NCBI RefSeq assembly: GCF_963853765.1
Contig: NC_088861.1
Coordinates: forward strand, 21,484,281-21,548,280
Direction of reading: 5' to 3'
Origin: Magallana gigas
Lineage: Eukaryota
Length of the DNA: 64,000 nt
Positions 14,065 to 63,393 of the stretch are shown here, in pieces. The notes beneath the pieces were generated by a model, which worked only from the letters and a program-made list of their open reading frames with translations, was not told the DNA's origin and did no database searches. The first letter of the stretch is position 1. Each line of letters starts with the position of its first letter. Both the position numbers and the translations under genes were made by a program.

Positions 14065-14159
14065 GAAGATGTTGAAAATGTGAAAAGTTTACAGACGGAC
14101 AGACAGACGGATGACATACAAAATGTGATCAGAATAGAAAGCTCAGGTGAGCTAAAAAA
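13463..14159 (+). mobile_element. Helentron/HINE-like non-autonomous element b (~0.7 kb)
   Basis: Its 5' end is CAAGAGGCCCATGGGCCACATCGCTCACCTGAG. Internally it has 1-2 units of the ~160-bp satellite (..TATATATTCCTATGTTAAACTTCGACCCCCCATTGTGGCCCCACCCTACACCCGGGGGTCATGATT..) and (GACR)n at 14090-14115. Its 3' end is GATCAGAATAGAAAGCTCAGGTGAGCTAAAAAA, so CTCACCTGAG and CTCAGGTGAG form a terminal inverted motif. Confidence 0.6.
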
Positions 14160-14739: not shown

Positions 14740-15265
14740 CCCCTCCCTTGGAAACATCCACAAAGAAAATGAACGTAAACTGCAAATAACTAGAATTTTT
14801 CTAAGTCCAAGGGGCATAACTCTGCCACAAATTGCTCTATCATACCCAAAATCAAATTTGACCTCGATATTATTTAGATAAACCTGCATATCAAATTTCA
14901 TATTAATATGTGCACCCTCTGCAAAAAAAAAGAGCCAAACTGCAAATAACTCGTATTTTTCTAAGTCCAAGGGCAATTACTCTGTCGAAAATTGCTCGAT
15001 CGAACCCAATATCAAACTTGACCTAGATATTATCAAGATAAACCTGTATACAAAATTTCATTTCAATATGTTCATCCTCTGCAAAAGAAATGAGCGGAAA
15101 CTGCAAATAACTCGAATTTTTCTAAGTCCAAGGGCAATAACTCTGTCAAAAATTGCTCGATCGAACCCAATATTGAACTTGACCTAGATATTATCATGAT
15201 AAACCTGTATACAAAATTTCATTTCAATATGTTTATCCTTTGCAAAGAAAATGAACGGAAACTGT
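14740..15265 (+). repeat. Tandem repeat, ~160-bp unit x ~3.3
   Basis: CTGCAAATAACT(C/A)G(A/T)ATTTTTCTAAGTCCAAGGGCAATAACTCTG recurs at 14780, 14940 and 15101. The array lies within an MVP intron. Confidence 0.8.
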
Positions 15266-21687: not shown

Positions 21688-21699
21688 TTATACATCTTA

Positions 21700-27184: not shown

Positions 27185-27490
27185 TAAGAATTTTCAGCTT
27201 ATTCATGAACAGTTCATGAAGATCTGATGAACTTATTATTGGACATTCATCAAATGATGAAGCTTCATGAATATAACTGTTCATGAATTATTCATGAAAA
27301 AGTATGTTCATGAATATTCATCAACATTTTCTCATGAACAAAAATTCATGACTTTAAAATGTCCAATAATAAGTTCATGGGATCTTCATGAACTTTTCAT
27401 GAACATTTCATGAATATAATTCATGAATCATTAAAGGGAAAATCATGAATTGTTCATGATCATCTCGCAGGGGTATATATGTACATACTC
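27185..27490. repeat. TTCATGAA-rich block (inverted copy of 18888-19150)
   Basis: ..TTCATGAACAGTTCATGAAGATCTGATGAACTT..GAAGCTTCATGAATATAACTGTTCATGAATTATTCATGAAAAAGTATGTTCATGAATATTCATC.. It ends TCATGATCATCTCGCAGGGGTATATATGTACATACTCAT, the reverse complement of 18888-18925. Confidence 0.5.
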
Positions 27491-30432: not shown

Positions 30433-30526
30433 GTATTTCTGAAATGAAGAAACAGTATCACTTTTTGATGTGTATATGATAATGTAAAATATGGTTTTAT
30501 TTTTTTTTTTAAATGATGAATTGAAG

Positions 30527-30790
30527 GTCAACACTTTGGTCATGGACAATGATTCTACCACGATTGCGAGGGTCAAAGCCACTGTGGATCCTAACATCAG
30601 AAAGAAGTGCAATTATAGTAATCATACTCGCAAAGGTTTCACAGGCAAGCTAGTTGATATGAGTAACACCTTCAAAGCATTGAAAAATGTTAAAGTTCGG
30701 GGTCATGTGGAGAGATGCTTTATGTATTGTGTCAAACAAAATCAACACAGCTTGAAGAAGATCTGCAAAAGATTGTTCCTCATCTGTATG
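30527..30790 (+). CDS. Exon: VNTLVMDNDSTTIARVKATVDPNIRKKCNYSNHTRKGFTGKLVDMSNTFKALKNVKVRGHVERCFMYCVKQNQHSLKKICKRLFLICM (donor at 30786 or 30791)
   Basis: Acceptor T-rich..GAATTGAAG|GTC in phase 0 with the previous exon. The motif LVMDNDSTT resembles the second catalytic Asp strand (DNAS-type) of RNase-H-fold transposases. A (TA)n microsatellite follows in the intron. Confidence 0.55.
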
Positions 30791-30795
<5 letters not shown>

Positions 30796-30875
<80 letters not shown>

Positions 30876-30893
30876 TATATAGAGAGAGAGATC
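30796..30893. repeat. (TA)n(GA)n microsatellite in an intron of the exonuclease gene
   Basis: Direct read. Confidence 0.95.
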
Positions 30894-30995
30894 TGTGCTA
30901 AGTTTTGAAACATTAAATATAAATACATGTTTAGTACATGTATTAAAGTTCATCTTGTTTAGATATTGACTGCAATTTATCAAATTTGATTTCAG

Positions 30996-31071
30996 GTGAA
31001 CATGACAAATGTGGGGCATGGTGCAGGAGTGAAAAATCAGGCTACGTACAAGCCAAGGAATTTGCCATATG
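30996..31071 (+). CDS. Candidate exon (frame ambiguous: CEHDKCGAWCRSEKSGYVQAKEFAI or VNMTNVGHGAGVKNQATYKPRNLPY)
   Basis: Acceptor TTTGATTTCAG|GTG, donor ATATG|GTAAGC (strong). Both frames are open. The frame depends on which donor ends the previous exon. Confidence 0.4.
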
Positions 31072-31161
31072 GTAAGCCTCTGACAGATCAGCCATTACGT
31101 GTTGCCCTGGAAGACCTTTTAAAGTATATGCTTGAAAAGTCGAGGAATTGGCCACTTTAGG

Positions 31162-31222
31162 ATCCACGCAAAGTAACGAAAATTTCAACCATATGGTAGC
31201 AAGCAAAGCACCAAAAAGAATG
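31162..31222 (+). CDS. Candidate exon: (G)STQSNENFNHMVASKAPKR
   Basis: Acceptor CCACTTTAG|G, donor AAT|GTAAGT (perfect). It is phase-consistent only with the VNMTNV frame of the preceding exon. The link to the next identified exon at 32543 is unresolved. Confidence 0.3.
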
Positions 31223-32542
31223 TAAGTTTACTGAAAAAGAATCACAAGTGCAAGTATTCTAGTAAATAATATTTCATACTACATGCTTTAAGTACATGTA
31301 TTTGAGACACACACAATTATGATGAGAGGTTTTATGGCAGATCTGAGAGTCTAAAAACAAGAGTTTCAGCCACTGTATGCCAAAAGAATGAGGGTTACAA
31401 ATATATCACTGTGGTAGAACTGTTAATTGCAGATGCAGTTTAGATTGACAGATTGTTTTAATAACTTTTTTATTTAGAATTACCTTTTGTTTGTTTTATT
31501 GTTGTTAATTTTGATTTCATAAATATTCGATTGCCAGATTGTAATACATGTATGAATCTGCCTGCACACATACACACTTATATGTTTTTATATATCTTGT
31601 TACCTAGTGCTACCCAAAATATATAATATGCTTATAATATTTATGAATGTATTTTGTTCCATGAAAATGTATATTTGCAAACTGGTCATATTGCGTAATT
31701 TTTCACTTTATTTTTCAGTTGTTCATATATTTGAAATCATAATAATTGTTATTAAATTATTACTAACATATCAAATAATTTCAGAGAGCCTTTTTTTTTA
31801 ATCCAGCATTCCATGTAATTTTGAATGAATTTTTGATTTTTATGTTTAATACATGTATATTGCTAGAAATAATACATGTTCATGACATTTTAACATGTAA
31901 TGAATAGTTATCCTTAATGAATTTGAATTACGTGTTAATTTCTATGTAGTTGAAGTAATTAATAAATAAGTGTTTTTCTGTCTTTTAAAGTAGATCCAGT
32001 GTTCTGTGACGTCACACTTTTTTGTAAAACTTTGAATTCTTTAAAAATTGTGCAAGATAGTTTTATTTATTTCATGTGAATATAATCACATGGATGTAAT
32101 TAGAATTATTGGTAGGTTCAAGATATTTTCGCACTTAATTTTATACTAAATTTCCAAATTTTTATATATTTTATCTATGCAAAGGGGAAATAACTCTTTT
32201 TCTGACTTTTCTCTTAGTTGTATGTCTAAATGCTATAATTTTTCTTATTCCAACGATTAATTTTAAAACATTTTTGTAATTTTAGTTTTCTGATAAAGTT
32301 GACATTAAAATTAAACAAGAAAAACAAATTTCTGCCTACAAGATTTTACTTTTAACAAAAAAAAATACATTTTTCTAATGCTAAAATATGCTTTAGTTCA
32401 TGTTTATCTGGCATCTCAAAAAGTGTGATGACATGTATATTTTTTCTAACAATTGATGACATTTAAGTCTATTAAGTCGAAATCAGTTCGGTTTTTCAAC
32501 TTTCCTCAGAGAATTTTACGAGTATGGAGCTACCTTAATTAG

Positions 32543-32702
32543 CTTAACAAGAGGTGTCAGATGTCTCCCGGCAGATTTACGGTAAAATACACCCCAAAAC
32601 TGGCAAATTCATTAAAAAGGAAGCGGTTACTTCAAGCCCAACGCAGTGCCAAACTGAAGAGTGAAAGGTTATCAAAAGATGCTACTCACTCAGTGCTTGA
32701 GG
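32543..32702 (+). CDS. Exon: LNKRCQMSPGRFTVKYTPKLANSLKRKRLLQAQRSAKLKSERLSKDATHSVLE (basic, NLS-like)
   Basis: Acceptor CTTAATTAG|CTT directly after an in-frame TAG, donor GAGG|GTAAAT. 53 codons open. Confidence 0.55.
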
Positions 32703-32821
32703 GTAAATAAAATACATGTACATGTACTTATTTCACACTGTATATAATGGCAATTTTTGTTAAGCTAGAGCATATCATATCATGATTGCAATGTATAAAA
32801 GTTGTTCCAAATTTTTTTTAG

Positions 32822-32959
32822 GTGAAACCTACAGCACCAATATTGGATTTAATGAATGTACTGACAAAGAGGACATCACCATTCCGTCAAAAGAGTTCTC
32901 CGTAGACAGCAGTTCCTTGATAGTTTTTTTACCTAGAAACTACAGGATTAGGTTAGTTT
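32822..32959 (+). CDS. Exon: (G)ETYSTNIGFNECTDKEDITIPSKEFSVDSSSLIVFLPRNYRIRLV(Y)
   Basis: Acceptor TTTTTTTTAG|GT carries 1 nt from the previous exon. The weak donor T|GTAGTA at 32960 gives a phase compatible with the final exon. Confidence 0.5.
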
Positions 32960-33045
32960 GTAGTAACCTTTGTTATGTATGCGTAATTGATATTTGATTA
33001 CAAATTATTTGGAAGGATAAGTGTACTTTTTACATTATATTGCAG

Positions 33046-33527
33046 ATTATTGCACATCAGACATCCTCCAAATCGCTTGTGTGTGTGGGGAGAGAGAGCT
33101 TAGCGTCTATACAAGACCAACCTGTACTATCAGTATTGGTGCCTCAGCTGCCACAGGATTAACATATTATGGAGGAGTTCTAAAGCTGAAGGGAGAAGCT
33201 GTTGATTCGTTAACAATTTTCGAAGGACTTGAACAGTTTATTGCATTTGTTTCGAGTTTTCCAAAAGCAGTTTTGATTGGACATAATATCATAAGTTTTG
33301 ATATCCCTGTGCTTATGCATAATCTTTCCAAGCACAACCTACTTGAGAGATTTCAAGAAATTGTTTTTGGATTTGTTGATACTCTCAAGTTGTCCAAAAG
33401 GATTTATCCAAAAGCAGAAATGGGTAATTACAGGCAAGAAAACCTTGTCCAGAAACTTCTGGGAGAAACATACAATGCGCACAATGCAGTTTCAGACGTA
33501 GAAGTTCTCCAAAGACGAAAAACTTAA
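33046..33527 (+). CDS. Final exon: DnaQ-like DEDDh 3'-5' exonuclease domain
   Basis: Acceptor TTATATTGCAG|AT. Translation: YCTSDILQIACVCGERELSVYTRPTCTISIGASAATGLTYYGGVLKLKGEAVDSLTIFEGLEQFIAFVSSFPKAVLIGHNIISFDIPVLMHNLSKHNLLERFQEIVFGFVDTLKLSKRIYPKAEMGNYRQENLVQKLLGETYNAHNAVSDVEVLQRRKT*. Exo II motif H-N-x-x-x-F-D and Exo III motif H-x-A-x-x-D lie about 66 aa apart, and the DILQIACV helix follows the expected Exo I position. No canonical D-x-E Exo I motif was found. Confidence 0.7.
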
Positions 33528-36699: not shown

Positions 36700-37420
36700 A
36701 AAAATTCTATAAACAGGGTATTATTTTAACTCGGAATAATTATTTAACTCGAAATTTAAAGAATAACAAAAATCGAGCAACTAAGTCCCCTGAGATGTTT
36801 GTAAAGCTCAATAAGGAAAAAATGTAGCTTAGTTTTCTTCATTCTAAGTCTAATGCAGTATAGTAGCAGTAAACATTTTGTTTATTTGTACTACATGTAT
36901 GTATCCTCCCTCTCAGATAATGTATATGATTATCAATATCCTTTCAAATGCTTAACAAAGTGTTTTGCTTATGTATGGTTTATTCTATATTAATTTATTT
37001 GTTTATTTCATATGTTTGTGTTATTTTTTATTTTGTTTGTTTTCATTTTTATTTGTAAACAATACTGTTGGCGGTGTACTCTGGGTTAGATGAGAATTTC
37101 GCTTGGTTAGTTGGCGCATGCCCAAAGGGGTTAGTTGCCGCTCGGCGGCGACTAACCCCTTTGAGCATGCGCCGATTTTCTTGTTTAGATTTATAATAAA
37201 TCCCCCTAAAAACTGTAAATCTCCATCTCTAATGTCAGTAAATCCTCGCGTTGTACTAATGAATTTTACGGTAACTGACATGATATAGAAGCATTTGAAC
37301 TGCCACACACACGTAAATGCAATAGCATATTACATCCAGATCCTGCCTCGGTCTTCAATGCCAAATCCATCGATGTTTTACGGAGTTCTGTGAGCAGACG
37401 AATTGCAAATCAAGATAATC
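36700..37420 (-). repeat. Arm A of a large inverted duplication (partner 45568-46272)
   Basis: Reverse-complement match of about 720 bp at more than 97% identity. It includes the 95-aa ORF 37021-37308 and a 64-bp palindrome at 37100-37170. Confidence 0.75.
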
Positions 37421-38468
37421 TCTGTAACTACGTACCATTTGCCTACCTCGGTCACGATACTGTGGGTTTTCCGATATCGGTGGTCAAACAGAGGCATTAC
37501 GCAGCGCAACTTGCATTACGAGGTCCTATCAAACATCCTTCAGTCCTAGCAGAAGTTTAAACTGAGCGTCACTTCCTATTTGTGTGACGTCACATTTCCT
37601 TAGTATGGCAGAGTCAAATAGATCGGCGGATCCATTCTCTAACTTGCCACCACAATGTATATAATTTATTTGATACGGAATGTTGACAATAATTATACAC
37701 ACAAAAATAAACTAACATTCTTTTGCAGGTATCAATGAAATTGGAGGTATATATAGCAACGTTATACATATTTTCTTTCTTTGTTTCAGTAAATCATATT
37801 TGTCTGTTCGTTTGTTATAGATTTAAATTTTGAACTGCTGCAGGATTTGCCTGTACATTTATGTGTTTCTTTCATTCTTGTTCCGTTAATTAGCATGCAT
37901 TGTTCATTGTGCATTGTTTATTAATTATATGATTAAATCATATCTAAAATACCGAGATGGCTTAAAATTTAACCTACATACGTGTATAGATAAAAAATGG
38001 AAAAGAGTCTATCGATTCCACTACACTTAATAAAAATGCCTATCTGAAGTTGCATCTTCGATAAACTACCTGGTATCGTAATGTTTATAATATATACATG
38101 CATGTATCATTTTCAATGGTGCGATGTCCAGATAATATTTTTATGTCTGCATTACGTGCATTTATATATAAAATAGTTTTTCAGTTTTCTTTTCTAGGAT
38201 CCTGCCATCTTTTTACGTCAATTCTTAGAGTGTCCCCGACTTGCATTGAAACATGTCCGAAGAGCAGTTCAAAAATATATCCATAAGAAGAAGAAAACCG
38301 GTCTCGAAAACATGAGAATCCAGGATCCGCCAGCCCATTTTCACTCATTTAAAATGCCACAATTTAGCGACAAAAAATCCAAGTACAAGCAATTCGTGAC
38401 GTAGAATTTGATTGTGACGTCCGATCACGGCAATATCTATAATAATTTTGCACAGAGACTGGGTTTTA

Positions 38469-38473
<5 letters not shown>

Positions 38474-38528
<55 letters not shown>
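38474..38528. repeat. (GA)n microsatellite
   Basis: Direct read. Confidence 0.95.
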
Positions 38529-38532
<4 letters not shown>

Positions 38533-38829
38533 GTTTCATGAATTCTATTAACTCTTAACCCCTTTCTATATATAGAATCCTTTTAATTTGGCCTCTATAA
38601 TCTGCTATGCTTGTAGAATAATCAATATACCCCGCTTTAAGATAGAAATGCATGTTTCTGTGTTTTATACATGTGTGTGCCAGTGTGCGGGGGGTGTGTT
38701 GTGTCTGTGCACCTTCTTGTCCGCACTCTACTCTCTTTTGTGAGTTTGTCTTTACAGCGTGTTACTTGTTCATGATTTGGATTATGTACTCTGCTTCAGC
38801 TTAGCAATGCATGTTTAATCACGTTTGTT

Positions 38830-38995
38830 TCTGTAGTATATGCACCCTCTGATCCTTAAACACCCTCTGTAGTATGCTAGCTAGCTTTGTAACATAACTG
38901 CATAGTGTGCGCTTTTGTGCATATGCGAATGGGTCACTAACCAGCTAATCCAAGCACTATGGACACTGGGGGTTCTAGCTAGTGCTATCGAATCA
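38830..38995 (+). repeat. Inner inverted-repeat arm (partner 44060-44225)
   Basis: GTAGTATATGCACCCTCTGATCCTTAAACACCCTCTGTAGTATGCTAGCTAGCTTTGTAACATAACTGCAT.GTGTGCGC..TTGTGCATATGCG.ATGGGTCACTAACCAGCTAATCCAAGCACTATGGACACTGGGGGTTCTAGCTAGTGCTATCGAATC is the reverse complement of 44060-44225 at about 97% identity. Confidence 0.7.
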
Positions 38996-40739
38996 AATCT
39001 CACATTTGTTTAACACCGAAATAGAGTTCCTTTCGCGTTTTGGTCTGTAATTCTTTGAATAAAGAAAAAATCAGATTTTATTTGTAGGAATAAATTCTGT
39101 CCCTACTGTACATAATTTACATGTACACCAGAATAAACTGATTTTGACAGTTTATGCGTTATAAACCGCCAAGCGGTTGATAAGAATAGTTTACAAATTG
39201 TTTCAAACTTGTTTACTAGCATATTATATGAATCCTATTTCATTTAAACGATAAATGGTCACATCAAAAGTCAATCTTCTACCATGCTTTACTGGCATTG
39301 TTCGATTTAAGGAATAAGGAATCATTCTTTGGGTATTATGAGGTGATAATTTTGGTCGCGGCCTGATCAAATCCAATAAAGCCCGAAGGGCTTTATGATA
39401 TATTCAATATTTAAAGAATGATTCCTTATTACTTATATGATATAATTTTCAGCAATTGTATGATTAAATATTTGAATATTAATAAGGAAACGCCCCTTGC
39501 GCCCCAATTATACGTCTTTTGAATTTATTGGACTGTAAAGTACAAAATCGATACGTAGTGTTATCACGGGCAAAGACACTGAAAAATGTAAATATATTTT
39601 ATTACCTAAGAGAAGTTCTTGTCACTGAATCATTGAGCAGTTGAAAGAGGATTGTAATATATTGACCATTGTTTGCGGCTATGAAATTCAGTAGAGCTTC
39701 GGGAAAGGGACTAAAACTTAACATATGACGTACTTTGAGTGCACCATAGTCCTAAGATAGCCTTATGATTATACCTACTGTATACCTGTAGCTTTTAAAA
39801 CTTCATAATTTCCTGAAAGAAAGTTCCCGCCGACTTTCTTGATTGATGCATAAGTTGTTGTTTAGTAAAAAATGTTTACAATTAATGTTTATAACGTTGA
39901 ACGAGAAAATAAGCACCACCTTTAAATGAAGTGTTTCAGTTCATATGCTATTTTCCTAGTTGAGGAATGCATTTAATATTTATTAGTTTTATACCATACC
40001 GGTATAAAATAGCTTGGAATACTTTGCGCTTTCTTACTATTGAATTCAGCTTTAACTAATTGAATAAGAAAACAGTTTTTACCTTTAAAATGACATCAAA
40101 TTGTACAAAATCCAAATTTAACGTCAGTCTGATTGATACCGTCCAACTATGATGGAGGCAACTTTAAATAAAGATATGATATGAAATATTTATCTACCCA
40201 GTCAGAAAAGCGTTACAGCTAGAATTAAATTATAAAATGGAATCGTCATTGTTGTGACAATATGCCTCCTTGAATTTGGAAACAAAATTAATTTAATCTT
40301 AACCTTCAGAGTCAGACAATTTCTTAAAAACTGCCATTTCAGATTTTTGTTTCAAAGAGGCAAATTTTTAAAAAAAATCTAACTTTGGAAAAAAAAATAA
40401 TACTTTTGAAATGTAAGAACTTGGAGCTAAATTTTCTCTAAATGAGTCATGTCTAGATTACAAAGAATAATCTCGCCCTGACCAGGCTACGCTCAGGTCA
40501 CAGTAAGAATTCGTCCCATACCTTGCAATGAAGCAGCCGCGAAGCGGATCTGCTTCGCGACGATTTTAAGTCTCTTTAAAAATAGTCTACAGGAGAAAAC
40601 GCATTTTTATACGTGTGTATAATGAACCTTTTTAAAACAATTATTAATATATGTAGTTAAGTCCACAAAATATGCATTTAATGAGTCCTACCAAGGCATT
40701 TAGATAATTTATTTAAACAATAAAATGCTTTCTTTGGTG

Positions 40740-43200
40740 ATTCTTGCGCGATATGAAGGTGGAATGCAAATTGAAGCGGACGCCTAAGAAAACATTGGAT
40801 TGAAATTGTATTTATGTATTTTATTTCATCAATAAGTATATAATCAGCAAATGTGAGGAAATCACAATTCTAGGGAGATTAAACGCAAGGCAAATGCGTT
40901 GTCCGATGACTTCAGAGAATCAGTCGTCACAAGTCTGAAATCAAGTGGGGCCATTGTTGAAACGGGGTTTATTCCAAAAGGAGAATAATTTAAATTCTGC
41001 CCCTATATTTTTTTTCGCTAAGTTAATGTACACGAATAGTAATGGGCGTTCATTGTTTATTTAGTTATACACTAACAGAAAAATCACTTACATCGATTAA
41101 CTTGTGATGACTGATTCTCTGAAAACATCGGACAACGTATTTGCCATGCGTAGAATCCCTCTCCAATTCGATTCTTTTCATATAATATTTGCTGATTATA
41201 TACTTATTAATGAAATAAAATGTGTTTCAATCGCTTTGCTGTTACTAAATAAAATGTTTTTCGATCGCTTTTAACTTATATAGCAAGTTAAAAAAAACGC
41301 TGAGGTGGATTGAAAATACGCTTCCCATAACTTCAGTTTCAATCCGATGTTTTCTCAGACGTCCGCGTCAATTTGTCCCCGCCCATTTCAGATGTTTTGA
41401 CTGTTACAGGTGAAATTGACGAACATGTAACAGGACCTGTATAAGCTATATATTTTCAATGTTGCCAGTTAATGTTCCGCGGTCTGATATATTTTTACTA
41501 TTTCTACGTTTGAATTTGCCTGCCATTTTGCCGGAAATCCCACTATAAATATCTCGGATATCATCACTATCATTTAAGTTACACAATCTTAAATGATAGA
41601 AGGCTAAATTGCACAAAAATAATTTTAAAAAACCCAGAAGATGTAACTTAATCTCTCTATTTTTTCATGTTTCAATTTAAGTGAAAAAAAATATTTACTA
41701 CTTGGTGGATTCGATCCAGCGACCACAAAATCAAAAAGACCTCCGCGTTACCACTAGGCCACGCATCTAACATTTTCATAAGATGCATTTTCAAGATATA
41801 TGGCTATATACATGATTGTTTTAGAAAAAGACACTAATTGAAATATTTGTCTAATTTTCAGTACGAAGACCACGTTAAACCAAAACTAATTAATGTAAAC
41901 GTGAAATACAATACATGTAGAACATAATTTTAATCGGAGTTCTTTGGTTTAGAGTGGTTCAAATAGTCAAATATCCAATTTTTTATTGTAAACTAACTAC
42001 AGTCCTATATATCCCTATCAAAACCTTAATAGTCTAATGATGTCGTATAAGATAATTAAGACTCTTAGAGCATGGTAATTGTGTAATTTGCGTTTCTTTT
42101 AATACATTTAAAGTAAATATTGTATAATATTGAAAATGTCTGATGTTTGCAAAAGTGCTATATTTTGGACCAAATCGTATAAGACCGCGGATTGGAAATA
42201 TACAGCTTACGTCAACTTCACCTGTTACAGTCAAAACATTTGTAATGGGCGGGAACAAATTAATGCGGACGTCTGAGAAAACATTATAGGATGTGTATTT
42301 TCAATCCACCTCAGCATTTCTAAAGCAGTCGAAAAAAATATTTAATATCAACAAAGCGATTGATAAACATTTCATTTAGTCAATAAGTATATAATCAGCA
42401 AATATGGGAAGATCTCAATTCGGGAGAGATTATAATAAAGGCAAAGCATTGTCCGATGACTTCAGAGAATTAGTCGTACATGTACATTGTAAAAAGTCTG
42501 AAATCAAGTGGGACCATTGTTGCATCGGGGTTTATTTATTATTTATTATGAGGAGAATTATTCAAATTTCGGTTGAATAATTTCAAATTTTATCCAAATA
42601 AAAACTATATTTTTCCGCTTAGTTAATGTATACGAATAGATATGCGCGTTCATTGTTTATCTAGCTCAACATAAACTTGCGACGACTGATGTTCTAAAGT
42701 CACCGGACAAAGCTTTGCCTTGTGTATGATATCTCCCAAATTAGGATCTTCTCATATAGAATGATTATCAATCAAATATCTCAATTTGATTTATTCAGCT
42801 AGACAAAGTTATCTGTACAAATCAAAGTAAACTCATGCGCTCAGAAATGTATATTTGTATATTATAAGATTTCAAAGTGACATTGATATAGGTCCAATGG
42901 GCTGGGTGTAATTTGATAATGTATAATATTGTATTGTACTATACTCATGACATACACGTGTCACTATAATAAAATATTTACTTACTTACTTACAATCACC
43001 TTGCTGATATACTTTAAAAAAGTTCGATCGCTTTAAATCATTTACTCAACCAAGGTAGAAACGGTGAGGTGGATTGAAAATACACTTCCTATACCACTAC
43101 AGTTTCAATCCAATGTTTTCTCAGACGTCCGTGTCAATTTGTTCCCGCCAATTTCAAATGTTTTGACTGCAACAAGTGAAATTGACGTACGCTGTATATT
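40740..43200. repeat. Cluster of foldback modules (module X ~140 bp, module Y ~130 bp) in both orientations
   Basis: Module X (GAGGTGGATTGAAAATAC..TTCAATCCGATGTTTTCTCAGACGTCCGCGTCAATTTGTCCCCGCCCATTTCAGATGTTTTGACTGTTACAGGTGAAATTGACG) lies at 41280-41420 (+), 42175-42315 (-) and 43065-43200 (+), with a fragment at 40765-40810 (-). Module Y (TAAGTATATAATCAGCAAAT..GGCAAATGCGTTGTCCGATGACTTCAGAGAATCAGTCGTCACAAGTCTGAAATCAAGTGGGGCCATTGTTGAAACGGGGTTTATT) lies at 40830-40960 (+), 41100-41230 (-) and 42345-42500 (+), with a diverged copy at 42640-42800 (-). Confidence 0.55.
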
Positions 43201-43770
43201 TCCAATATTCCGCGGTCTTATTAGTTAATTGTTGAACAATACATGCATATTAACGAGAAAAACCCCTACAAAAAACCCCCAAATAAATCTACAATCAAAT
43301 CCTGCAACAGTTCAAAATATGAATCTAACAACAGACACAATTAATGTGACGCGCCAAGCAAAAATTGCGTAGATATGGCGTTGAAAGGTTACACTTGTTA
43401 CCTTTTTTTTGTTTGCAAAAATTATCGAAGATTTTAATGTTTAAACACCAACAGCGGAAAAACGAAGAGACAAAATTAATGTGACGCACCAGGCAAAAAT
43501 TGCTTTGAAATGGCAAATCCGATCCTTTAATTATGACCAATCTGTTAAAAGATGCTTCTATTGTACTTGTTTCTTGGCTCACAACGAATGATGAAACTTT
43601 TAAATTGGCTAATTTAAATTGTTAATGATTTTGGAACATTACAACGTAACATGGGCGATCCAGACGTTTTGCCCGGGGAAGGGGGGGTGTCCGAGGGGTA
43701 TCTATATTTGTAAAGTCTTAGTAATTTTACTATCTAATTTTCAGAAATTTGAAGTTTCCGATACAACACT

Positions 43771-43804
43771 ATATATATATATATATATATATATATCTAT
43801 ATAT
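43771..43804. repeat. (TA)n microsatellite
   Basis: Direct read. Confidence 0.95.
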
Positions 43805-44059
43805 GAATAACATGTGCTTTTATCGCGTTTTGTATACATGTACTTGTATTATTTACCTTATCAAGAAATTCATTATGATCATTCATAAAGGTGGGGATGC
43901 GAGTAATTTGACTCAGGTCGTCCATCCGATTTTTTTCAGACCGGAAGCTATTGTTTGAATCAAGCAACATTTATTCTAAAAATGCGTTTGTTATGCATGA
44001 TAGAATTATTTTTTGAATATAATAAAACTTAGTTCAATCAAGACTTCCAACATTTCAAA

Positions 44060-44225
44060 AAGATTCGATAGCACTAGCTAGAACCCCCAGTGTCCATAGT
44101 GCTTGGATTAGCTGGTTAGTGACCCATACGCATATGCACAAAGGCGCACACCATGCAGTTATGTTACAAAGCTAGCTAGCATACTACAGAGGGTGTTTAA
44201 GGATCAGAGGGTGCATATACTACAT
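44060..44225 (-). repeat. Inner inverted-repeat arm (partner 38830-38995)
   Basis: See the partner entry at 38830-38995. Confidence 0.7.
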
Positions 44226-44255
44226 AATCACAAGCCGTGCATTAGTAAATTGCAA

Positions 44256-44268
44256 TGAGAGAGAGAGT

Positions 44269-44312
<44 letters not shown>
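44256..44312. repeat. (GA)n microsatellite
   Basis: Direct read. Confidence 0.95.
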
Positions 44313-44315
<3 letters not shown>

Positions 44316-44504
44316 TCGGAAACCAAAAAAAATGAAAAAGGGGGTTAGCCGCCCCCCCGCCCCCCCAATTTTCATTAATTTCAATTAAAATTATATGTAC
44401 ACAATATTTTTTTTAAGTATATTTCCATTTTTTATTTGTTTCCGACGTACAAATGAAATATCATTATACTTATATTAAGGGGAAATGAAATGAAGGTGTT
44501 TATA

Positions 44505-44787
44505 ACAGGCACGTAGCATCGGGGGGGGGGGGGGGGGGGGGGGGGGTGCATTTACATATAAAAAAAAAATTATCATGGAGTTGGCCCCCACTTTTTTGGG
44601 AGCATGTAAAAAATTAATATGAAAATAAGGAAATTAGGTAAATACTACGCCACCCCCCCCCCCCCCCCCCCCCCGGATTAGGGAAGATTTTGGGAAAATC
44701 ATAATTTTTTTTTTTTTTGCTTGTCAAGATTTTTGGATGAGCCTGCCCCCCCTTCCCCCACTTTCAGAAACGATGCTACGTGCCTGT
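44505..44787. mobile_element. ~280-bp MITE-like element with 15-bp TIRs carrying poly-G (44521-44546) and poly-C (44652-44674) tracts
   Basis: TIRs AGGCACGTAGCATCG (left) and CGATGCTACGTGCCT (right). The interior resembles 28080-28160 (GCTTGTCAAGATTTTTGGATGAGCCTGCCCCC..CTTCCCCC and GCTTATAAGATTTCTGATCAAGTCTAGCCCCCTACCCC). Confidence 0.45.
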
Positions 44788-45567
44788 ATAAGCAGGCATA
44801 TACTTCTGCTATATATACAGAGTTACACAACAGCATCATGATTACATGTAGATATTGCATGTGAAAGCATTACGCACGTACATGCATTATTTGAGCAGGA
44901 AGCTTGCATTTGTGAAATAATGATGAATTAAAAAAAAATTGCGTGTGCAGAGAAACCGAGTAGATCTATATTCTATATAATGAACACATTATAAAATCAT
45001 CATCAAATTGTACTTTTCCTCTATCTCCGAGGACAATACGTGTTATATTTCATTGATCTCTGATCTCTGAATCACTGATCACTGAATATAAAACAAGGTT
45101 GTGAAAAATGACGTCACAGCGGCTTTATAACTCTCCACTTGCACACTAAAAATGCATCTCTTAGCTGGAGGTGAAACACGGGTGCGGATCATGGATCTTC
45201 AAACTTCGAAGTCCGATTTCTCTATTTTCTACTTTACAGTTTGATTTCCTCTTGTGATATTTGATTGTGTGGATAAAATGAAACTTTTTACAACAAATTA
45301 AAAGTACGTGTATATAATAATAAAGACTATATGCCTTATATTACTTACAAGGCGCAAAGTTTGCTTTAGATTTAGAAAGTTCGGGAAAACAATGTACCTG
45401 TGACGTGGTACTTTACAACGTGACGTCGATGAGTGGTAGTCTGCATGAGGAAGGAGGTGCTGTAAGTTTTAGTCAGTGTTTACATCGTAGGGTTTGTCTT
45501 GTCATTTTGCGATTTAAAAACGTTGTTACGATTGTGAAAACATGAGAGAGATTATGTGTTAGAGATT

Positions 45568-46272
45568 ATCTTGATTTGCAATTCGTCTGCTCACAGAACT
45601 CCGTAAAACATCGATGGATTTGGCATTGAAGACCGAGGCAGGATCTGGATGTAATATGCTATTGCATTTACGTGTGTGTGGCAGTTCAAATGCTTCTATA
45701 TCATGTCAGTTACCGTAAAATTCATTAGTACAACGCGAGGATTTACTGACATTAGAGATGGAGATTTACAGTTTTTAGGGGGATTTATTATAAATCTAAA
45801 CAAGAAAATCGGCGCATGCTCAAAGGGGTTAGTCGCCGCCGAGCGGCAACTAACCCCTTTGGGCATGCGCCAACTAACCAAGCGAAATTCTCATCTAATC
45901 CAGAGTACACCGCCAACAGTATTGTTTACAAATAAAAATGAAAACAAACAAAATAAAAAATAACACAAACATATGAAATAAACAAATAAATTAATATAGA
46001 ATAAACCATACATAAGCAAAACACTTTGTTAAGCATTTGAAAGGATATTGATAATCATATACATTATCTGAGAGGGAGGATACATACATGTAGTACAAAT
46101 AAACAAAATGTTTACTGCTACTATACTGCATTAGACTTAGAATGAAGAAAACTAAGCTACATTTTTTCCTTATTGAGCTTTACAAACATCTCAGGGGACT
46201 TAGTTGCTCGATTTTTGTTATTCTTTAAATTTCGAGTTAAATAATTATTCCGAGTTAAAATAATACCCTGTT
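45568..46272 (+). repeat. Arm B of the large inverted duplication
   Basis: Holds the same 95-aa ORF (45676-45963, 1 aa different) and the same palindrome at 45810-45880. It is followed at 46295-46380 by a (GACA)n microsatellite plus hairpin. Confidence 0.75.
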
Positions 46273-46294
46273 TATAGGGGGGACACAGTTGCGT

Positions 46295-46380
46295 CTACAG
46301 ATAGACGGACAGACAGACAGACGGACAGATGGACAGGGTGAAACCAATATACCCCCCTAAACTTCGTTTGCGGGGGTATA
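46295..46380 (+). repeat. (GACA/GACG)n microsatellite plus hairpin (Helentron-like 3' module)
   Basis: AGACGGACAGACAGACAGACGGACAGATGGACAG is followed by ATACCCCCCTAAACTTCGTTTGCGGGGGTAT. Confidence 0.45.
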
Positions 46381-46624
46381 ATGAAATGTATATGTTCCAT
46401 TCTGCATATTAGACTTCATTTGTTATGGAATAAATAATAATTCACAAGAGGAAATTGAGAATATATATTTTTTCAAGAATGTCAAAACATGGGTGCAATG
46501 GATTACATCCAATAACAAAAAATAAGCATGTGGACCTATCTTTTTTTTTCTTCATTTATCAGTTTCTAGGATGTATGACTATAATTTAAAACCAAGTTTA
46601 CAAAGTTTGAGCCCATTTAGTGCC

Positions 46625-47569: not shown

Positions 47570-47610
47570 TGTCGGTCTTTCATTTCTGCAATTTATAATC
47601 ACCTTTCTAT

Positions 47611-47645
<35 letters not shown>

Positions 47646-47692
47646 GAAGTGGTTTTAGAAAAGAAGTTCAAAATGTGAAAAGTTTACAGACG

Positions 47693-47724
<32 letters not shown>

Positions 47725-47780
47725 TCAAAATGTGATCAGAATAGCTCACTTGAGCTTTCAGCTTAGGTGAGCTAAAAAAT
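47570..47780 (+). mobile_element. Helentron/HINE-like 3' terminal fragment
   Basis: ..GGATGCTTTGTGCCAAATTTGGTTGAAATTGGCGAAGTGGTTTTAGAAAAGAAGTTCAAAATGTGAAAAGTTTACAGACGGACAGACAGACGGACGGACAGACAGACGACGG..GATCAGAATAGCTCACTTGAGCTTTCAGCTTAGGTGAGCTAAAAAA. A second truncated 3' fragment lies at 48590-48720 and a 5' terminus at 48134-48170. Confidence 0.5.
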
Positions 47781-48230
47781 TAAATGCCAACGAAATTTTA
47801 TTTGGTTAAAAAACAATGAAATTTTGACCCATCGAAAATATGTGCTTCTACAGTACATTGATGTGACTCAAATGGAGATTGATGAAGACTGACCTGCATG
47901 GATTCTGGATGATACAGTAGTGACCAGGTTTGACTACCACCATTGGCAGGGGCTGGGTGACAAGTCTCTCATTTCCCTTCAGTGGTATTGTCTGTGGTCC
48001 TACCTCAAGTCTTGTAATGTTAGTGTTCTATATAAATCAAAAGATTACAAAACATTACAATTCAAAAAAATTATAAAGCAATATAACATTCACTTGTGCT
48101 TGTTAACATATGGGAGAAACATAATACATAAATAAGAGGCCCATGGGCGACATTGCACACCAGAACAACAGTTAATAATATTGTATCTTACGAAACTTTA
48201 AAATATGAAACTCCTTGTTTCTTTTTTTTT

Positions 48231-50282: not shown

Positions 50283-51658
50283 TAACAAGAGGCCCAGGGG
50301 CCACATCGCTCACCTGAGCAACAATTGCCTTAATTCTGATCAAAATAGCATTACAGTATCAAAATATCTTGACAACTAGGTACAGTAGATCTTGCTAAAA
50401 AAATTTGAAAATCTGCCAATTTTTATCCACCTCTTTCTTTTGGTAAATACCAAGCCCCTTTTGTTGTTGTAACTGTAAGAACATTTTTCTCTTTTCCTAT
50501 ATACCCCCCCCCACTTTGTTGCCCCACTTTTCTCTAGGGTATCATGGTTTCATCAAACTTATATCTGCATAACCTGTGCTTTCACACTAAGTACTGAGTT
50601 TTGGACCGAAAAACTTTCCCAGAATATTTTTAAAGATTTTCTCTATATATGTAAAAATTCAAACCGCCATCACGGCCCCGCCCTACCTCTAGGGACTGTG
50701 ATTTTGAATTTACACTACCCGAGGATGCCTCTACACAAGTTTAAGCTTTTCTGGCCAAATGGTCTTTAAAAAAAGATTTTTAAAGATTTTCTCTATATAT
50801 TCCTATGTAAAACTTGATCCCCCAATTGTGGCCCCACCCTACCCCCAGGGATCATGATTTGAACAAACTTGATTCTACACTACCTGAGGATGCTTCCATT
50901 CAAATTTGAGCTTTCTGGCCTAATAGTTTTTGATAAAGAGATTTTTAATATATATTCCTATGTAAAAATTGATCCCCCCATTGTGGCCCCGCCCTACCCC
51001 CGGGGACTATGATTTGAACAAACTTGAATCTACACTACCTGAGGATGCTTCCATTTTAATTTGAGCTTTCTGGCCTAATTGTTTTTAAGAAGAAGATTTT
51101 TAAAGATTTTCTCTATATATTCCTATGTAAAAATTCATCCCCCTATTGTGGCCCCACCGTACCCCCGGGGACCATGATTTGAACGAAACTTGAATCTACA
51201 CTACCTGTGGATGCTCCCATTTTAATTTGAGCTTTTGTGGCCCAATAGTTTTTGAGAAGAAGATTTTTAAAGATTTTCTCTATATATTCCTATGTAAAAC
51301 TTTATCCCCCTATTGTGGCCCCACCCTACCCCCAGGGACCATGATTTGAACAAACTTGAATCTACACTACCTGTGGATGCTTCCATTTTAATTTGAGCTT
51401 TCCTGGCCCAATAGGTTGTGAGAAGAAGATTTTTAAAGATTTTCTCTATATATTCCTATGTAAAATTTGATCCCTTTCTTGTCACCCCTCCCTACCCCCG
51501 GACCCCCGGGGACCATGATTTGAACAAACTTGAATCTACACTACCTGAGGATGCCTCCACACAAGTTTTAGCTTTTCAGGCCAAATAGTTTTTGAGAAGA
51601 AGATTTTTGAAAAATACCAACAAATTTTCAATAATTCTCAATTATCTCCCCTTTAAAG

Positions 51659-51701
<43 letters not shown>

Positions 51702-51750
51702 TAGTGGTGCTTTGTGCCAAATTTGGTTGAAATCTGCCCAGTGGTTCTTG

Positions 51751-51785
<35 letters not shown>

Positions 51786-51814
51786 GACGACGACGACAAC
51801 GACAGACAACGGAC

Positions 51815-51846
<32 letters not shown>

Positions 51847-51866
51847 TGGCTCAGGTGAGCTAAAAA
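50283..51866 (+). mobile_element. Helentron/HINE-like non-autonomous element e (~1.6 kb) with satellite array
   Basis: 5' end CAAGAGGCCCAGGGGCCACATCGCTCACCTGAGCAACAATTGCC. Array of about 6 units of ~160 bp at 50627-51602 (GATTTTTAAAGATTTTCTCTATATATTCCTATGTAAAA.TTGATCCCCC.ATTGTGGCCCCACCCTACCCCCGGGGACCATGATTTGAACAAACTTGAATCTACACTACCTGAGGATGCTTCCATTTTAATTTGAGCTTTCTGGCC.AAT.GTTTTTGAGAAGAA). (GACGAC)n at 51778-51810. 3' end GATCAGAAAAGCTCACTTGAGCCTTTGGCTCAGGTGAGCTAAAAAG. Confidence 0.7.
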
Positions 51867-58360: not shown

Positions 58361-59132
58361 AATTCTTTGATGTTAGTTGATAAATAACACTAAGTTGATA
58401 TTGATGCAATGTACATGTATGTGTAATTCTTGCCGCGCTCGCCCCAACGGTAGCACCGTAAAACATATTAAAAAATTTAGAACTCCACAAATTGGTTTTA
58501 TACTGGTGTCTCATAATATCGCGGTACTTATTTTTACCTTAAAAAAGATATACTAAGTTATCATTTTCACATGTCATTAGTGCTGTTCAAAAAGCTTTTA
58601 TTAGACTAGCTTTTCTGAGGAACATCAATTTCCCAACATACGTAATTTATTTTGTGTGCTATTTTTAATTCACAAGTCTCATTCACATTCAAAATTAGAG
58701 AACTCCATTGTATCGCGGCATTGGAAATCTGGAAGCCAGGTTCAGTTATAAGGCCAAAAAAAAAATGATTCCTGTTTCCTGTCGCCCGACCGACCCTATC
58801 TTTTACCCTCCGACCCTAAAAGTTTTTTTGTGATCATGGTGGTGATCGGTAAATTCGCCAGAATTTCCTCAGAAAGAGAAGTGAAGATGACCAAGTCTTC
58901 TGAGTTCATAATCGTGTAAATTAACCTCACTGGCGAAAGAATGATAGAAAATTAATCTACAGACATTTTTACTGCATAAATATACCTTGTGGTGAATAAC
59001 TTGCGACTATCTTACCTTCAGGGGTTATAAATACGGGTGATGCAACAACACACTGTATATTGGAAATTACAAAAACAATGTTTATTACTTTAAATCCTGA
59101 TATTACAGTTAGTCAATAACCTTTTATTTAAG

Positions 59133-59284
59133 AAATAAACAACGTTATTTAGTGAACATAGCGTTATGAATAGCAATTGCTCTGTTGGCATATTCCATGA
59201 TGCGCGCTAGCGCATCATGGAAAATATGCCAGCAGAGCAGTTGCTATTCATAACGCCATGTTCACTAAATAATCGTTGTTTATT
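59133..59284. repeat. Long near-perfect palindrome (~73-bp arms, centre GCGCGCTAGCGC)
   Basis: Left arm AAATAAACAACGTTATTTAGTGAACATAGCGTTATGAATAGCAATTGCTCTGTTGGCATATTCCATGATGCGCGC. Right arm, starting after the central TAGC, GCATCATGGAAAATATGCCAGCAGAGCAGTTGCTATTCATAACGCCATGTTCACTAAATAATCGTTGTTTATT. Fewer than 5 mismatches between arms. Confidence 0.8.
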
Positions 59285-60939
59285 ACTTATATTTGCATTT
59301 TACCACTCGCAAATACCCTGTATTAGCCTAGACCTTGACATTTAGCTATTACATCAAAAGTAAACATTCAGACTAATGTATCTTTTTAATTCACATAGAT
59401 TTGTTAACAGAATCAATGATATGTTATGACAGTAATTCCTTTAAAATGTTATCAAAAACATGTTTTAATTATTACATGTAAATACGTCAATTTTAATGGA
59501 GTTGGAGAAAAACACATGATGTATCGTATAGTGGATTAAATCTATAACGTCATGGAAAAGTATATATAACGTTACACCTTTATGACGTCATAGTATACTG
59601 ACAGAGCAATTGCGATTATAGAGAAATAATTGCAGCTCCTCCGTATGGGCTTACAGTGGGAAAGAACAATCGAAATGCAAATATTAGTTAATAACTGCAA
59701 TAAATGTTAAAATTATCATAAAACTACGTTCTTCATTATCTTGAGAATTAAACAGATCCTCTACATAACGTACGGTAGTTAGTCAAAGGGTAGTACAGAG
59801 AGTGATTTAATTAATCATGTTGATATTGACATTAAGCTACCGGTAATACAATACAAAAATATTTATCCATAAAAGGATAAATACATTTATACACATAGAT
59901 TAAATTTTGCAAATAATATTAGTTTTTATTTTTAATTAAAAAATTAATCTATTTTTTTTCTTTGCCTGTTGTTTTCTATACATTGCATGCATCAACAAAA
60001 GACCTTTGGAAATTTTAAATCATCTATTTACATACTGAACACTGGGAATATACATCTCTCTCATTATTACACATATGCTCCAAGTTTTTAAAAATAAAAT
60101 ATTTTTTAAAAATAAATTTTTTTTCCTACCTACCTACCCTAATTTTTTTGGTCAAGTGACAGGGATCAGGAATAATTTTTTTTTTGGCCTAACGGACAGT
60201 TTTTATTTTTTTTAAATAAAATATGATTCTTCATGAAAGCAAAGTCATTAAATTATATACATTCTATTATGCTTTTTATTTAGTTTTTTTTTTATATCAG
60301 ATACATTGTGTACTTTTTATATGCCTTCTCTCCGGAAAATTTTTATTTGTGAGAAAAATTTTATTTGCCGATATATTTGACAACCTTCTTTGTACTCATC
60401 CTGAAGTTGGTGCATGAACTCCTTGTGGAAAATCGCGGAAAAAACGAGAATCCTATTTTTTGGAACATACCGCGATACAACGGAACCCGCGATATAATGA
60501 GAAGAGAGTATATCAAATTATTTCCTATATTTATCTATAACTTCCTATCGAAAATAGGTGACGTCGTTCAAAACAACTCTGGTTATGGCGGATCCATAAA
60601 ATGTCAAATAGCTCCTAGAATTTTTGTTGATTTGAAAACAAAAAATCACATAAATACATAATGAATTGCTGATTGTTAAACTTAATATAATAAATGAATT
60701 ATATTTTAGGGCAAACCAGTTTTTCTTATGTGAAAAAAAAATGCACTATCAAAAACCGGTAAAGCCAGGATATAAATGGCCTAGTACTCACCAAGTCCAA
60801 TACATGGACAAATTGCAGTGGTTTTAATCCAAGAATACTGTTTGACATCATCATGTGTCTATCTTTTCCCCCTTTTTTTCAAGCTCTGACACTGACAGTC
60901 ATGTCAGATAACCGGAAGTTGTGAAATTTTCCTTGCAGG

Positions 60940-61195
60940 GAGTGTAACTAAAATGGGTAGCGAAACCCGGGGCGGGCCGGGATTTTCGAAACTGATAACC
61001 GGGTTTTTGTTGAGTTCTTTAAAAAATACCCATTTGTTCTGCACGAAATTTGCAGGAATACAAGTTGTAATAAAGTATTCCTGCAAATTTCGTGCAGAAC
61101 AAATGAGTATTTTTTAAGAAATCAACAAAAACCCGGTTATCAGTTTCGAAAATAACGGCCCGACCCGGGTTTCGCTACCCATTTTAGTCACACTC
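60940..61195. mobile_element. 256-bp foldback MITE flanked by a 9-bp target-site duplication CCTTGCAGG (Mutator-like TSD length)
   Basis: Arms of about 120 bp, GAGTGTAACTAAAATGGGTAGCGAAACCCGGGGCGGGCCGGGATTTTCGAAACTGATAACCGGGTTTTTGTTGA..TTCTGCACGAAATTTGCAGGAATAC, around a ~14-bp centre, with 1-2 mismatches. The direct repeat CCTTGCAGG at 60931-60939 and 61196-61204 is not part of the palindrome. Confidence 0.65.
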
Positions 61196-61947
61196 CCTTG
61201 CAGGCGAAGACTAATCACCGGAATATTATAATGACGTTCGCTCTGAAAGACACTTCGTATCGAGATAGACTCACATGCAAAAAGTATGTCATTTTTTATT
61301 ATTTTTAATTTGAATTTTATTTAAAATAAACCTTGATATATTTTTAAGCAGGGACGTATATACTTCCCTGATTTTTTTGTATAAAATTTAAATAGAACAG
61401 CTTTGCAAAATATCAAAGAAACAGTCTGACGTGACCCGGAATGGGTATGTCTACCCTCTATACTATAAAAACAATTGATTTATAGTATAAAGGGTAGAAA
61501 TAAATATATATCGTTCTTCATTTACTAAATTATCTGGGAGCGTCTATGGATCACCAGAGGTTGAAGTCTGATCAAAAAACCTAAATTGCAAACTCATCAA
61601 AAAATTCTTGAAAGAAAAAAAAATTAAAACAAAACAAACATAATGATTCCACAGTAATTTAAGAATCCTCCTTATGCTATGTGCCTGCAATATCTGCCCA
61701 CACAATAAAGTTTTGTAAATTTTGGGATTTAGAATTTATATGAGTTTTATAAACTTATTTTAGAGCAGACGGAGCTTGTAGATATATCGGTGCAAGTTTA
61801 TATGAACTGGAAAATTATGAGCAGAAATCCGTCACAGATGGTCCATGCCAATGGAAAAAAAATGCCACAAGCACATGACCAGCCAGTAGAAATAAGCAAA
61901 CTAAGGATCCACAAGGCAAGCTACAGGTATAAACAATACACAATCTT

Positions 61948-62067
61948 ATTAAAATTAGACCTTTCATCTTGCTCTCTGTTATATATGGATACCGCTCGTG
62001 AAAGGAGATCCTTTCACGAGCGGTATCCATATATAACAGAGAGCGAGATGAAAGGTCTAATTTTAAT
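61948..62067. repeat. 120-bp near-perfect palindrome (centre GGAGATCC)
   Basis: ATTAAAATTAGACCTTTCATCTTGCTCTCTGTTATATATGGATACCGCTCGTGAAAGGAGATCCTTTCACGAGCGGTATCCATATATAACAGAGAGCGAGATGAAAGGTCTAATTTTAAT, with 1 mismatch between arms. Confidence 0.8.

Positions 62068-63257: not shown

Positions 63258-63393
<136 letters not shown>

Follow-up and report, generated by a model that had tools for sequence, protein, structure and literature searches.

A stretch of 64,000 nucleotides (nt) of the Magallana gigas genome (assembly GCF_963853765.1, contig NC_088861.1, positions 21,484,281 to 21,548,280 of the forward strand), here called the window, contains a nested inverted structure of 9.57 kb at positions 36708-46277, in which a long outer pair of arms encloses a shorter inner pair and an interior holding further repeats (Table 1). 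The outer arms (36707/8-37423 and 45561-46277) are 717 nt long, differ by one mismatch (99.86% identity) and stand 8.1 kb apart, with the element termini of both facing outward. A preliminary description of this DNA had placed them at 36700-37420 and 45568-46272; the pair itself stands and its limits have been refined. The inner arms, formerly given as 38830-38995 and 44060-44225, required a similarly small correction and extend at lower identity to 38805/44257. The centres of the two pairs fall at 41492 and 41528, an offset of 36 nt, which bears out the common centre near 41.5 kb that had been proposed; an inner pair placed at random inside the spacer is centred this near by chance in about 2.6% of cases (72 of 2732). 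The region had also been called palindromic as a whole. The arm pairs are real, but a sensitive self-comparison of the region finds no mirror symmetry beyond them, and mirror homology between 37424-38822 and 44231-45560 was rejected: the two segments are unrelated except for (GA)n runs (38474-38528 and 44257-44312), which lie in the same orientation and are not mirrored.

The 9.57-kb unit has no coding capacity, its six frames being dense with stops and without Pfam matches. No long open frames appeared when 36-47 kb was translated in all six frames, and chosen open reading frames (ORFs) from the arm, the interior and the flanks had no match in Pfam, with no transposase remnant among them. Substantial tandem sub-repeats are likewise missing from the arm, where Tandem Repeats Finder (score 30) reports only an 18-nt unit repeated 1.9 times and a 21-nt unit repeated twice.

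Table 1. Features of the inverted structure and its immediate surroundings, in window coordinates.
Feature	Position	Strand	Remarks
Left outer arm	36708-37423	-	Shared terminal module of about 717 nt; element terminus at the low-coordinate (outer) end
52-nt insertion	36934-36985	.	Marks the sublineage; mirror copy at 45999-46050
Left-arm hairpin	37113-37173	.	61 nt, imperfect; dG (folding free energy) -35.1 kcal/mol, z -9.9 (DNA fold)
Left-variant unique segment	37424-38822	-	With the left arm, a unit of about 2.1 kb; collinear in L003, L005 and L006 (96-98%)
TAATCAC direct repeat	38816-38822 and 44225-44231	+	7 nt; flanks the inner-arm pair
Left inner arm	38826-38994	+	169 nt, 5 mismatches; 97% identical to the right inner arm
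Core foldback unit A	about 40767-41455	.	Left terminal repeat truncated; palindromic centre 40818-41221
Core foldback unit B	42179-43221	.	Terminal inverted repeats of about 165 nt starting TAAGACCGCGG; palindromic centre
Old arm-family fragment	43225-43336	-	Homologous to 37810-37906 and to L004 53-150; abuts the end of unit B
Right inner arm	44062-44230	-	Partner of 38826-38994
Right-variant unique segment	44231-45560	+	L001 (from 44808), L002 and L008 collinear across 45560/45561
Right outer arm	45561-46277	+	Same module of about 717 nt; terminus (...AATAATACCCTGTTTATAG) at the high-coordinate (outer) end
Right-arm hairpin	45811-45871	.	Same 61-nt hairpin
(GACA/GACG)n and terminal hairpin	46293-46390	-	Resembles the left-flank end of a Cg_HINE-like element; starts 16 nt past the right arm

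A spurious ORF of 95 amino acids (aa) that runs across the arm hairpin provided a handle for finding relatives of the arm, since it has counterparts in three protein clusters (Logan and ENA assemblies). Eight contigs carrying the arm, designated L001 to L008, were fetched from eight different runs or assemblies; all are short, at most 3.4 kb. Exact look-ups in public assemblies of the arm ORF (three start variants), of the exonuclease ORF of the window and of a flank ORF returned nothing on record, and a literature search on the run accessions of the contigs and on diagnostic sequence strings returned nothing relevant. A second copy of the whole arm-core-arm unit was found neither in the outside contigs, none longer than 3.4 kb, nor by ORF and pattern searches with parts of the interior.

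The terminus ...AATAATACCCTGTT is reached by five of the contigs (L001, L003, L004, L005 and L007), each of which runs on into a flank of its own, and the two window copies add two further flanks. Because the same terminus is followed by different flanks, the outer edge of the arm is a genuine element end, present at five other loci. With its variants the terminus reads ...GAGTT(A/G)AAATAATACC(C/T)TGTT; it closes in a T-run of variable length (2-4 T), and the flanks begin with T or A. Past CCCTGTTT, the bases are ATAG in both window arms and AAAG, AAAA, AAAC, TCAT and others in the remaining copies. These ATAG bases may belong to the element, since TTTATAG in the window and TTTAAAG in L003 differ by a single base. 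Among the contigs that fall short of the terminus, L002 departs from the window at 46216, 61 nt before the terminus, into sequence unrelated to the window, and L008 ends within the arm.

The inner edge of the arm, which is crossed by seven outside contigs, is likewise a feature of the whole family and leads into two different sequences. L003, L005 and L006, together with the 82%-divergent L004, run inward into the sequence found on the left side of the window; L001, L002 and L008 run into that of the right side, crossing 45560/45561; and L007 starts exactly at the inner junction. L001 reaches the outer terminus, where its flank differs from that of the window, and its right-type collinearity begins at 44808, the farthest point inward to which outside copies follow the right unit. 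On these comparisons the arms represent a terminal module common to the members of a dispersed, non-coding repeat family, which has two variants that differ inward. The family is young, with 1-4% divergence among most copies.

The most complete outside copy is that of L003 (3.4 kb), in which an entire left unit of 2.03 kb (window 38822 back to 36706) stands between two stretches of unrelated sequence. On the inner side the unit stops (...GCATGTTTAATCAC) precisely at 38822 (...GTTTAATCAC), the very base at which the window changes to the inner arm, and what lies beyond matches neither 38823 onward nor 44232 onward of the window. No terminal inverted repeats (TIRs) were found in the left unit and no convincing target-site duplication (TSD) in L003; TTAA occurs at or within 1 nt of both ends of the L003 copy, which is not so in the window. 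The outer end of this copy lies 10 nt downstream of an AAG/GTGAGA splice-donor consensus that closes a 275-aa HEAT-like ORF, an adjacency that suggests an intronic insertion. From L003, then, the arm family inserts in or beside genes. A 141-aa ORF with an upstream TATA-like motif begins 170 nt past the other end; in L003 coordinates, the two gene-like flanks are 2626-3435 and 1-423.

The most conserved part of the arm family is the hairpin carried by each arm. It had been described as a perfect hairpin of 64 bp; a hairpin is indeed present in both outer arms, but it measures 61 nt and is not perfect, with 29-nt stems that contain two asymmetric mismatches and a 3-nt loop. As DNA, the two copies fold with dG values of -35.1 and -34.3 kcal/mol (z about -10). 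The hairpin is nearly invariant across all nine copies, the divergent L004 included, and both asymmetric stem mismatches are kept in nine of nine. In L004, 2 of 85 positions in the hairpin and its flanks have changed, against a substitution divergence of 13% elsewhere (P about 5e-4). This conservation, in so divergent a copy and with the mismatches retained throughout, suggests that the hairpin serves the element in cis. The Rfam model mir-8186 scores 39.8 bits on the hairpin, below its gathering score of 80, and matches it on both strands, as it would any long palindrome; a metagenome pattern scan for the hairpin gave 0 matches. A short AT-only palindrome, AATAATTATT, lies about 30 nt from the terminus of the family.

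The two window arms differ from one another by 0.14% and from most outside copies by about 1.5-2%. Both carry the 52-nt insertion and four substitutions, none of which occurs in L001 to L007 (L006 ends before the insertion segment). The notion that these features are private to the locus was dropped, as the right-type L008 has three of the four substitutions and at least the first ~20 nt of the insertion, which makes them markers of a sublineage. The left arm, though joined to left-type sequence, thus carries three markers and the insertion otherwise seen only in a right-type copy. Position 45857 is T in all three outside right-type copies and C in all outside left-type copies, and both window arms have C; G at 45884 is confined to the two window arms. 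Mismatches number 1 in 716 in the outer arms compared with 5 in 169 in the inner arms (Fisher p = 0.0012), and the left-unique part of the window has 10 private substitutions in 749 nt. From the near-identity of the arms, their mosaic markers, the greater identity of the outer than of the inner pair and the private substitutions of the left-unique part, we infer that the long arms have probably exchanged sequence, by gene conversion between close inverted copies of the same sublineage.

Between the two arm-bearing segments lie repeats of other kinds. The inner arm was considered as a self-folding miniature inverted-repeat transposable element (MITE) and rejected, having no fold of its own (z 0.15). 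No further copies of it occur in the window and none were retrieved outside (ORF query; metagenome pattern scan with 0 matches), and a multiplexed 670-aa ORF query that joined the left-unit end, the inner arm, the right-unique segment, the core units and the spacers retrieved no homologues. The left copy of TAATCAC forms the very end of the left unit, and 9 extra nt part it from the left inner arm. Of 300 random trials with free shifts, 14 (about 5%) gave a direct match of 7 nt or more; the repeat could be the TSD of an element of 5.4 kb with the inner arms at its ends, or microhomology, or chance. The core had been described as copies of alternating modules. Such modules exist, and in self-comparison they resolve into two related foldback units, A and B. 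The TIRs of unit B are 91% identical, and as single-stranded DNA the unit has a dG of -224 kcal/mol; unit A matches unit B at 80-90%. Both have the attributes by which foldback MITEs are recognised, being small and non-coding, with long inverted termini and several copies, and no TSD was found for either. A fragment of about 110 nt next to unit B has its relatives in an older branch of the arm family.

The variant-specific segments contain smaller features of their own. Within the left unit, 19-nt inverted ends at 37884-37902 and 38805-38823 (CGTTAATTAGCATGCATTG / CAATGCATGTTTAATCACG; pair I5) bracket about 940 nt, and this stretch, 37884-38823, has similar flanks, TTGTTC and TTGTTTC. It may represent a nested MITE, one end of which also serves as that of the left unit. 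Both L004 and the fragment at 43.2 kb lose similarity near the left end of this candidate (37884). In the right-variant segment, 26 consecutive G and 20 consecutive C, separated by 76 nt, make up an inverted pair (44521-44672), which drew the sub-threshold Rfam microRNA matches.

We hold with moderate confidence that the region is a transposon nest, in which two members of one dispersed non-coding family lie in inverted orientation with homogenised arms. A left-variant unit, 36708-38822 and perhaps to 38994, would have inserted with its terminus outward; a right-variant unit, running from 46277 inward to at least 44808 and perhaps to 44062, would have inserted in the opposite orientation; and the two would have arrived separately. 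The roughly 5 kb between them would consist of other repeats, namely the inner arms, the two foldback MITE-like copies and the old arm-family fragment, and gene conversion between close inverted copies of the same sublineage would have rendered the outer arms near-identical. The structure itself would be without function, and it could mediate inversion of the 8.1-kb interior. Support for a nest comes from the dispersed family, from an inner junction that is family-wide, from the solitary unit of L003, from the unequal identities of the two arm pairs, from the mosaic markers and from the lack of a composite TSD: for 36708-46277 none of 2 to 12 nt exists, symmetric direct repeats reaching 3 nt at best, and a search with free shifts yields 4 nt for the 9.57-kb unit, below the chance median. 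Inverted structures are, moreover, normal in this sequence, because the 64 kb contain some ten separate inverted pairs with a length of 100 nt or more, three self-palindromes included; the outer-arm pair is the most identical among them.

Several points weigh against a nest. Outward termini, with modules of 717 nt and about 170 nt disposed around centres only 36 nt apart, are what a single element with long TIRs would present, and the meeting of left- and right-type junctions at one locus would follow readily if they belonged to opposite ends of a single element. No outside copy sets a limit to the right unit on its inner side, and L003 is the one copy that does so for the left unit; contigs assembled from short reads can be chimeric at the ends of repeats, and none from outside is long enough to span a composite. 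The missing composite TSD is weak evidence, because the family leaves no detectable TSD in any case. The conversion markers were read from outside copies that number three of the right type and three or four of the left type, and these copies possibly come from other populations or species.

The main alternative, put forward tentatively, is a single non-autonomous foldback-like element with long TIRs, whose two sub-terminal regions would be the left- and right-type sequences. Its interior would be either original or a nested 5.4-kb element (38823-44224) inserted with a 7-nt TAATCAC duplication, in which case the host would measure about 4.2 kb (36708-38822 plus 44232-46277). Such an element would account for arms that are 99.86% identical and face outward, that share sublineage markers though joined to different sequence, and that are nearly concentric with the inner pair. 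It would also fit the occurrence of both junction types in other samples, with L007 breaking exactly at the junction as if its genome held both, and the position of TAATCAC, which flanks the inner-arm pair and whose left copy is the exact end of the left unit. Against this, the 9.57-kb unit has no TSD of 2-12 nt, its arms lack the tandem sub-repeats of classical foldback elements, no transposase remnant was detected, and no second whole copy emerged from the multiplexed ORF search or from two metagenome scans, both empty. In L003 the left unit gives way to sequence unrelated to either 38823 onward or 44232 onward, and TAATCAC is significant only at about 5% and lies 9 nt away from the left inner arm. 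The earlier suggestion of a large foldback transposon is therefore sound in so far as the arms are mobile-element sequence with outward termini; for movement of the 9.6-kb unit as one, these same absences, together with the solitary left unit of L003, tell against it.

It is doubtful, in our estimation, that the arm family is a mobile element outside current superfamily definitions and that the 9.6-kb structure is, in addition, a functional composite of long inverted repeats able to move or invert the DNA between its ends. An element of this kind would combine sharp ends, no TIRs, no TSD and a variable T-run at one terminus, and its strongly conserved 61-nt hairpin would serve as a cis-acting recognition or processing site, for instance in a mechanism of the single-strand or rolling-circle type or in the making of small RNA.

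We consider it very unlikely that a local rearrangement, by inverted duplication or replication template switching, produced the second outer arm on the spot, perhaps along with the second inner arm. The near-identity of the arms and their common ATAG beyond the terminus speak for such an event, and TAATCAC at the breakpoints of the inner arms could be microhomology. Both edges of the 717 nt are, however, boundaries of the family as a whole, which a local duplication is not expected to reproduce, and the right-type junction 45560/45561 recurs in three outside contigs (L001, L002 and L008) and the left-type in three others (L003, L005 and L006). For the outer arms, local rearrangement is largely refuted, and with it the proposal that the region is a segmental inverted duplication peculiar to this locus, as both arm edges recur at other loci in other samples. 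Cruciform extrusion had also been put forward as a route to rearrangement. Extrusion of a cruciform needs a short spacer, so it is not expected of arms 8.1 kb apart; secondary structure is plausible for the 61-nt hairpins and the core foldbacks alone. Inversion or gene conversion between the arms is plausible. An assembly fold-back or chimeric artefact is scarcely credible: near-perfect inverted repeats can come from chimeric long reads, and the outer junctions (36707 and 46277 with their flanks) are not confirmed in an independent assembly, but a fold-back read would hardly confine the duplication to 717 nt, leave one mismatch in it and enclose an interior of 8.1 kb that is unique and asymmetric, and both internal junction types were seen independently in contigs from other samples.

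The window in which the structure lies has a G+C content of 32%, almost no long ORFs and many repeats. No transfer RNAs were found in it, and Rfam at gathering thresholds gave no match, with only generic microRNA-hairpin noise at E<=1. An exonuclease-like ORF at 33021-33527 (Pfam RNase_T) shares 95% identity with a protein cluster in which Magallana gigas UniRef entries occur, and a more distant cluster includes a Crassostrea angulata protein. Judged by these similarities and by the Cg_HINE-type repeats described below, the window has the look of cupped-oyster DNA. Fragments of a multicopy exonuclease/'PML-like' family (Pfam RNase_T, Exu_RNase_H_like and PML_C) occupy 30491-33527 and 3897-4283. 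Database proteins match the exonuclease region in several pieces at 83-98% identity, none of them being encoded exactly in the window, and on account of these piecemeal matches the window copy is regarded as a paralogue, possibly itself part of a mobile element.

Satellite-like arrays with a period of 160-172 nt, or the ends of such arrays, were observed at 12281-13000, 13724-14134, 14761-15264, 19519-21690, 47577-47782 and 50648-51866. They are followed by a (GACG/GACA)n microsatellite, a terminal hairpin and an A-run. This layout of array, (GACG/GACA)n and hairpin is the published architecture of Cg_HINE, a non-autonomous Helentron of Crassostrea gigas (PMC7492417). The layout of the short feature just beyond the right arm recurs at about 13.0, 14.1, 21.6, 47.7 and 51.8 kb; its hairpin is weak (z -1.8). 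A second and larger inverted pair, 6525-9609/23647-26691, has collinear arms of about 3 kb at 88-93% identity, about 14 kb apart. Of ORFs of at least 70 aa, its left arm has one (70 aa) and its right arm five (75-105 aa). Four self-palindromes (59126-59292, 60934-61202, 61941-62074 and 27202-27403; 134-275 nt, arm identity 78-96%) are probably foldback or MITE-like insertions. Long perfect dinucleotide microsatellites comprise (AG)65 at 63261-63390 and (TA)36-43 at 6451-6529, 9613-9684 and 30796-30881, the three TA runs cross-matching one another.

The locus offers a caution for the study of repeat-rich bivalve genomes, in which nested palindromes can come from ordinary insertions of transposable elements (TEs) and the homogenisation of near inverted copies. 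An inverted pair of 717 nt with 99.9% identity, 8 kb apart, is a plausible substrate for inversion and can mislead assemblers. The arm family may merit an entry in repeat libraries, being dispersed and young, near a likely exon in one outside copy, and a fit to none of the superfamilies tested; a hairpin conserved far above background gives further ground for such an entry.

The arm family is unclassified, fitting none of the superfamilies considered here; it may already have a name in Repbase or Dfam. The terminal consensus of hAT elements is YARNG. The arm terminus, CAGGG..., fits it, and the arm has two subterminal direct repeats, TTTAACTCG(G/A)AAT. Unlike in hAT elements, an 8-nt TSD is absent from every copy that shows both of its ends (L003 and the window), CAGGG stands at only one end of the 2.1-kb unit with no matching inverted terminus, and no transposase remnant accompanies it. 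Elements that target TTAA, piggyBac among them, have it duplicated at both ends. TTAA follows CCCTGT in L003, L004 and L007, and not in the two window copies, L001 or L005; the termini of the arm unit are not the CCC/GGG of piggyBac. Helitrons have the ends 5'-TC...CTRR-3' and a hairpin 10-20 nt before the 3' end, whereas the arm unit ends in AAACAGGG... and ...GTTTAATCAC.

Helentrons and HINEs have 11-15-nt subterminal inverted repeats (subTIRs), set in by 2-4 nt at the 5' end and by 38-60 nt at the 3' end (PMC4067079, PMC7492417). They also leave no TSD, have terminal T-runs and T-rich targets, and carry a short palindrome 8-35 nt from the 3' end and central tandem repeats of 140-180 nt or a microsatellite. 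In partial likeness to these non-autonomous Helentrons (Cg_HINE, pearl and DINE-1; PMC7492417, PMC4067079), the arm family is found in oyster, is non-coding, shows no TSD in L003 and has a terminal run of 2-4 T, T/A-rich flanks, an AT-only palindrome about 30 nt from the terminus and an internal microsatellite; Cg_HINE-like elements surround the region, and one of them abuts the right arm. The T-run and the missing TSD are drawn from L003 and the sampled termini, only one end being well sampled. Unlike them, the family has neither the 140-180-nt central tandem repeats nor the 11-15-nt subterminal inverted pair, of which none was found between the ends of 36708-38822 or of L003 592-2625, and its conserved hairpin lies about 400-450 nt from the terminus, not 8-35 nt.

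Foldback transposons produce TSDs of 7-10 nt (PMC4079207). With the Drosophila FB, Galileo and Tetris elements (PMC4079207) the window unit shares 717-nt TIRs that face outward, a variable non-coding middle and a modular, rearranged structure, and core unit B is a small foldback element itself. It departs from them in having neither a 7-10-nt TSD nor a domain of tandem sub-repeats in its arms, and in that the arm is joined elsewhere to a defined segment of 1.4 kb that ends without a partner arm (L003). Finally, nested TE clusters that contain converted inverted pairs are a general eukaryotic phenomenon. In comparison with them, the mirroring of a long and a short module about nearly one centre, with the low chance expectation given above, sets the region apart as more ordered than a random nest would be. 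In its other traits the region resembles these clusters: opposite copies of one dispersed family enclose unrelated repeats, the ensemble lacks both TSD and coding capacity, and the long arms are more alike than the homologous pieces that surround them.

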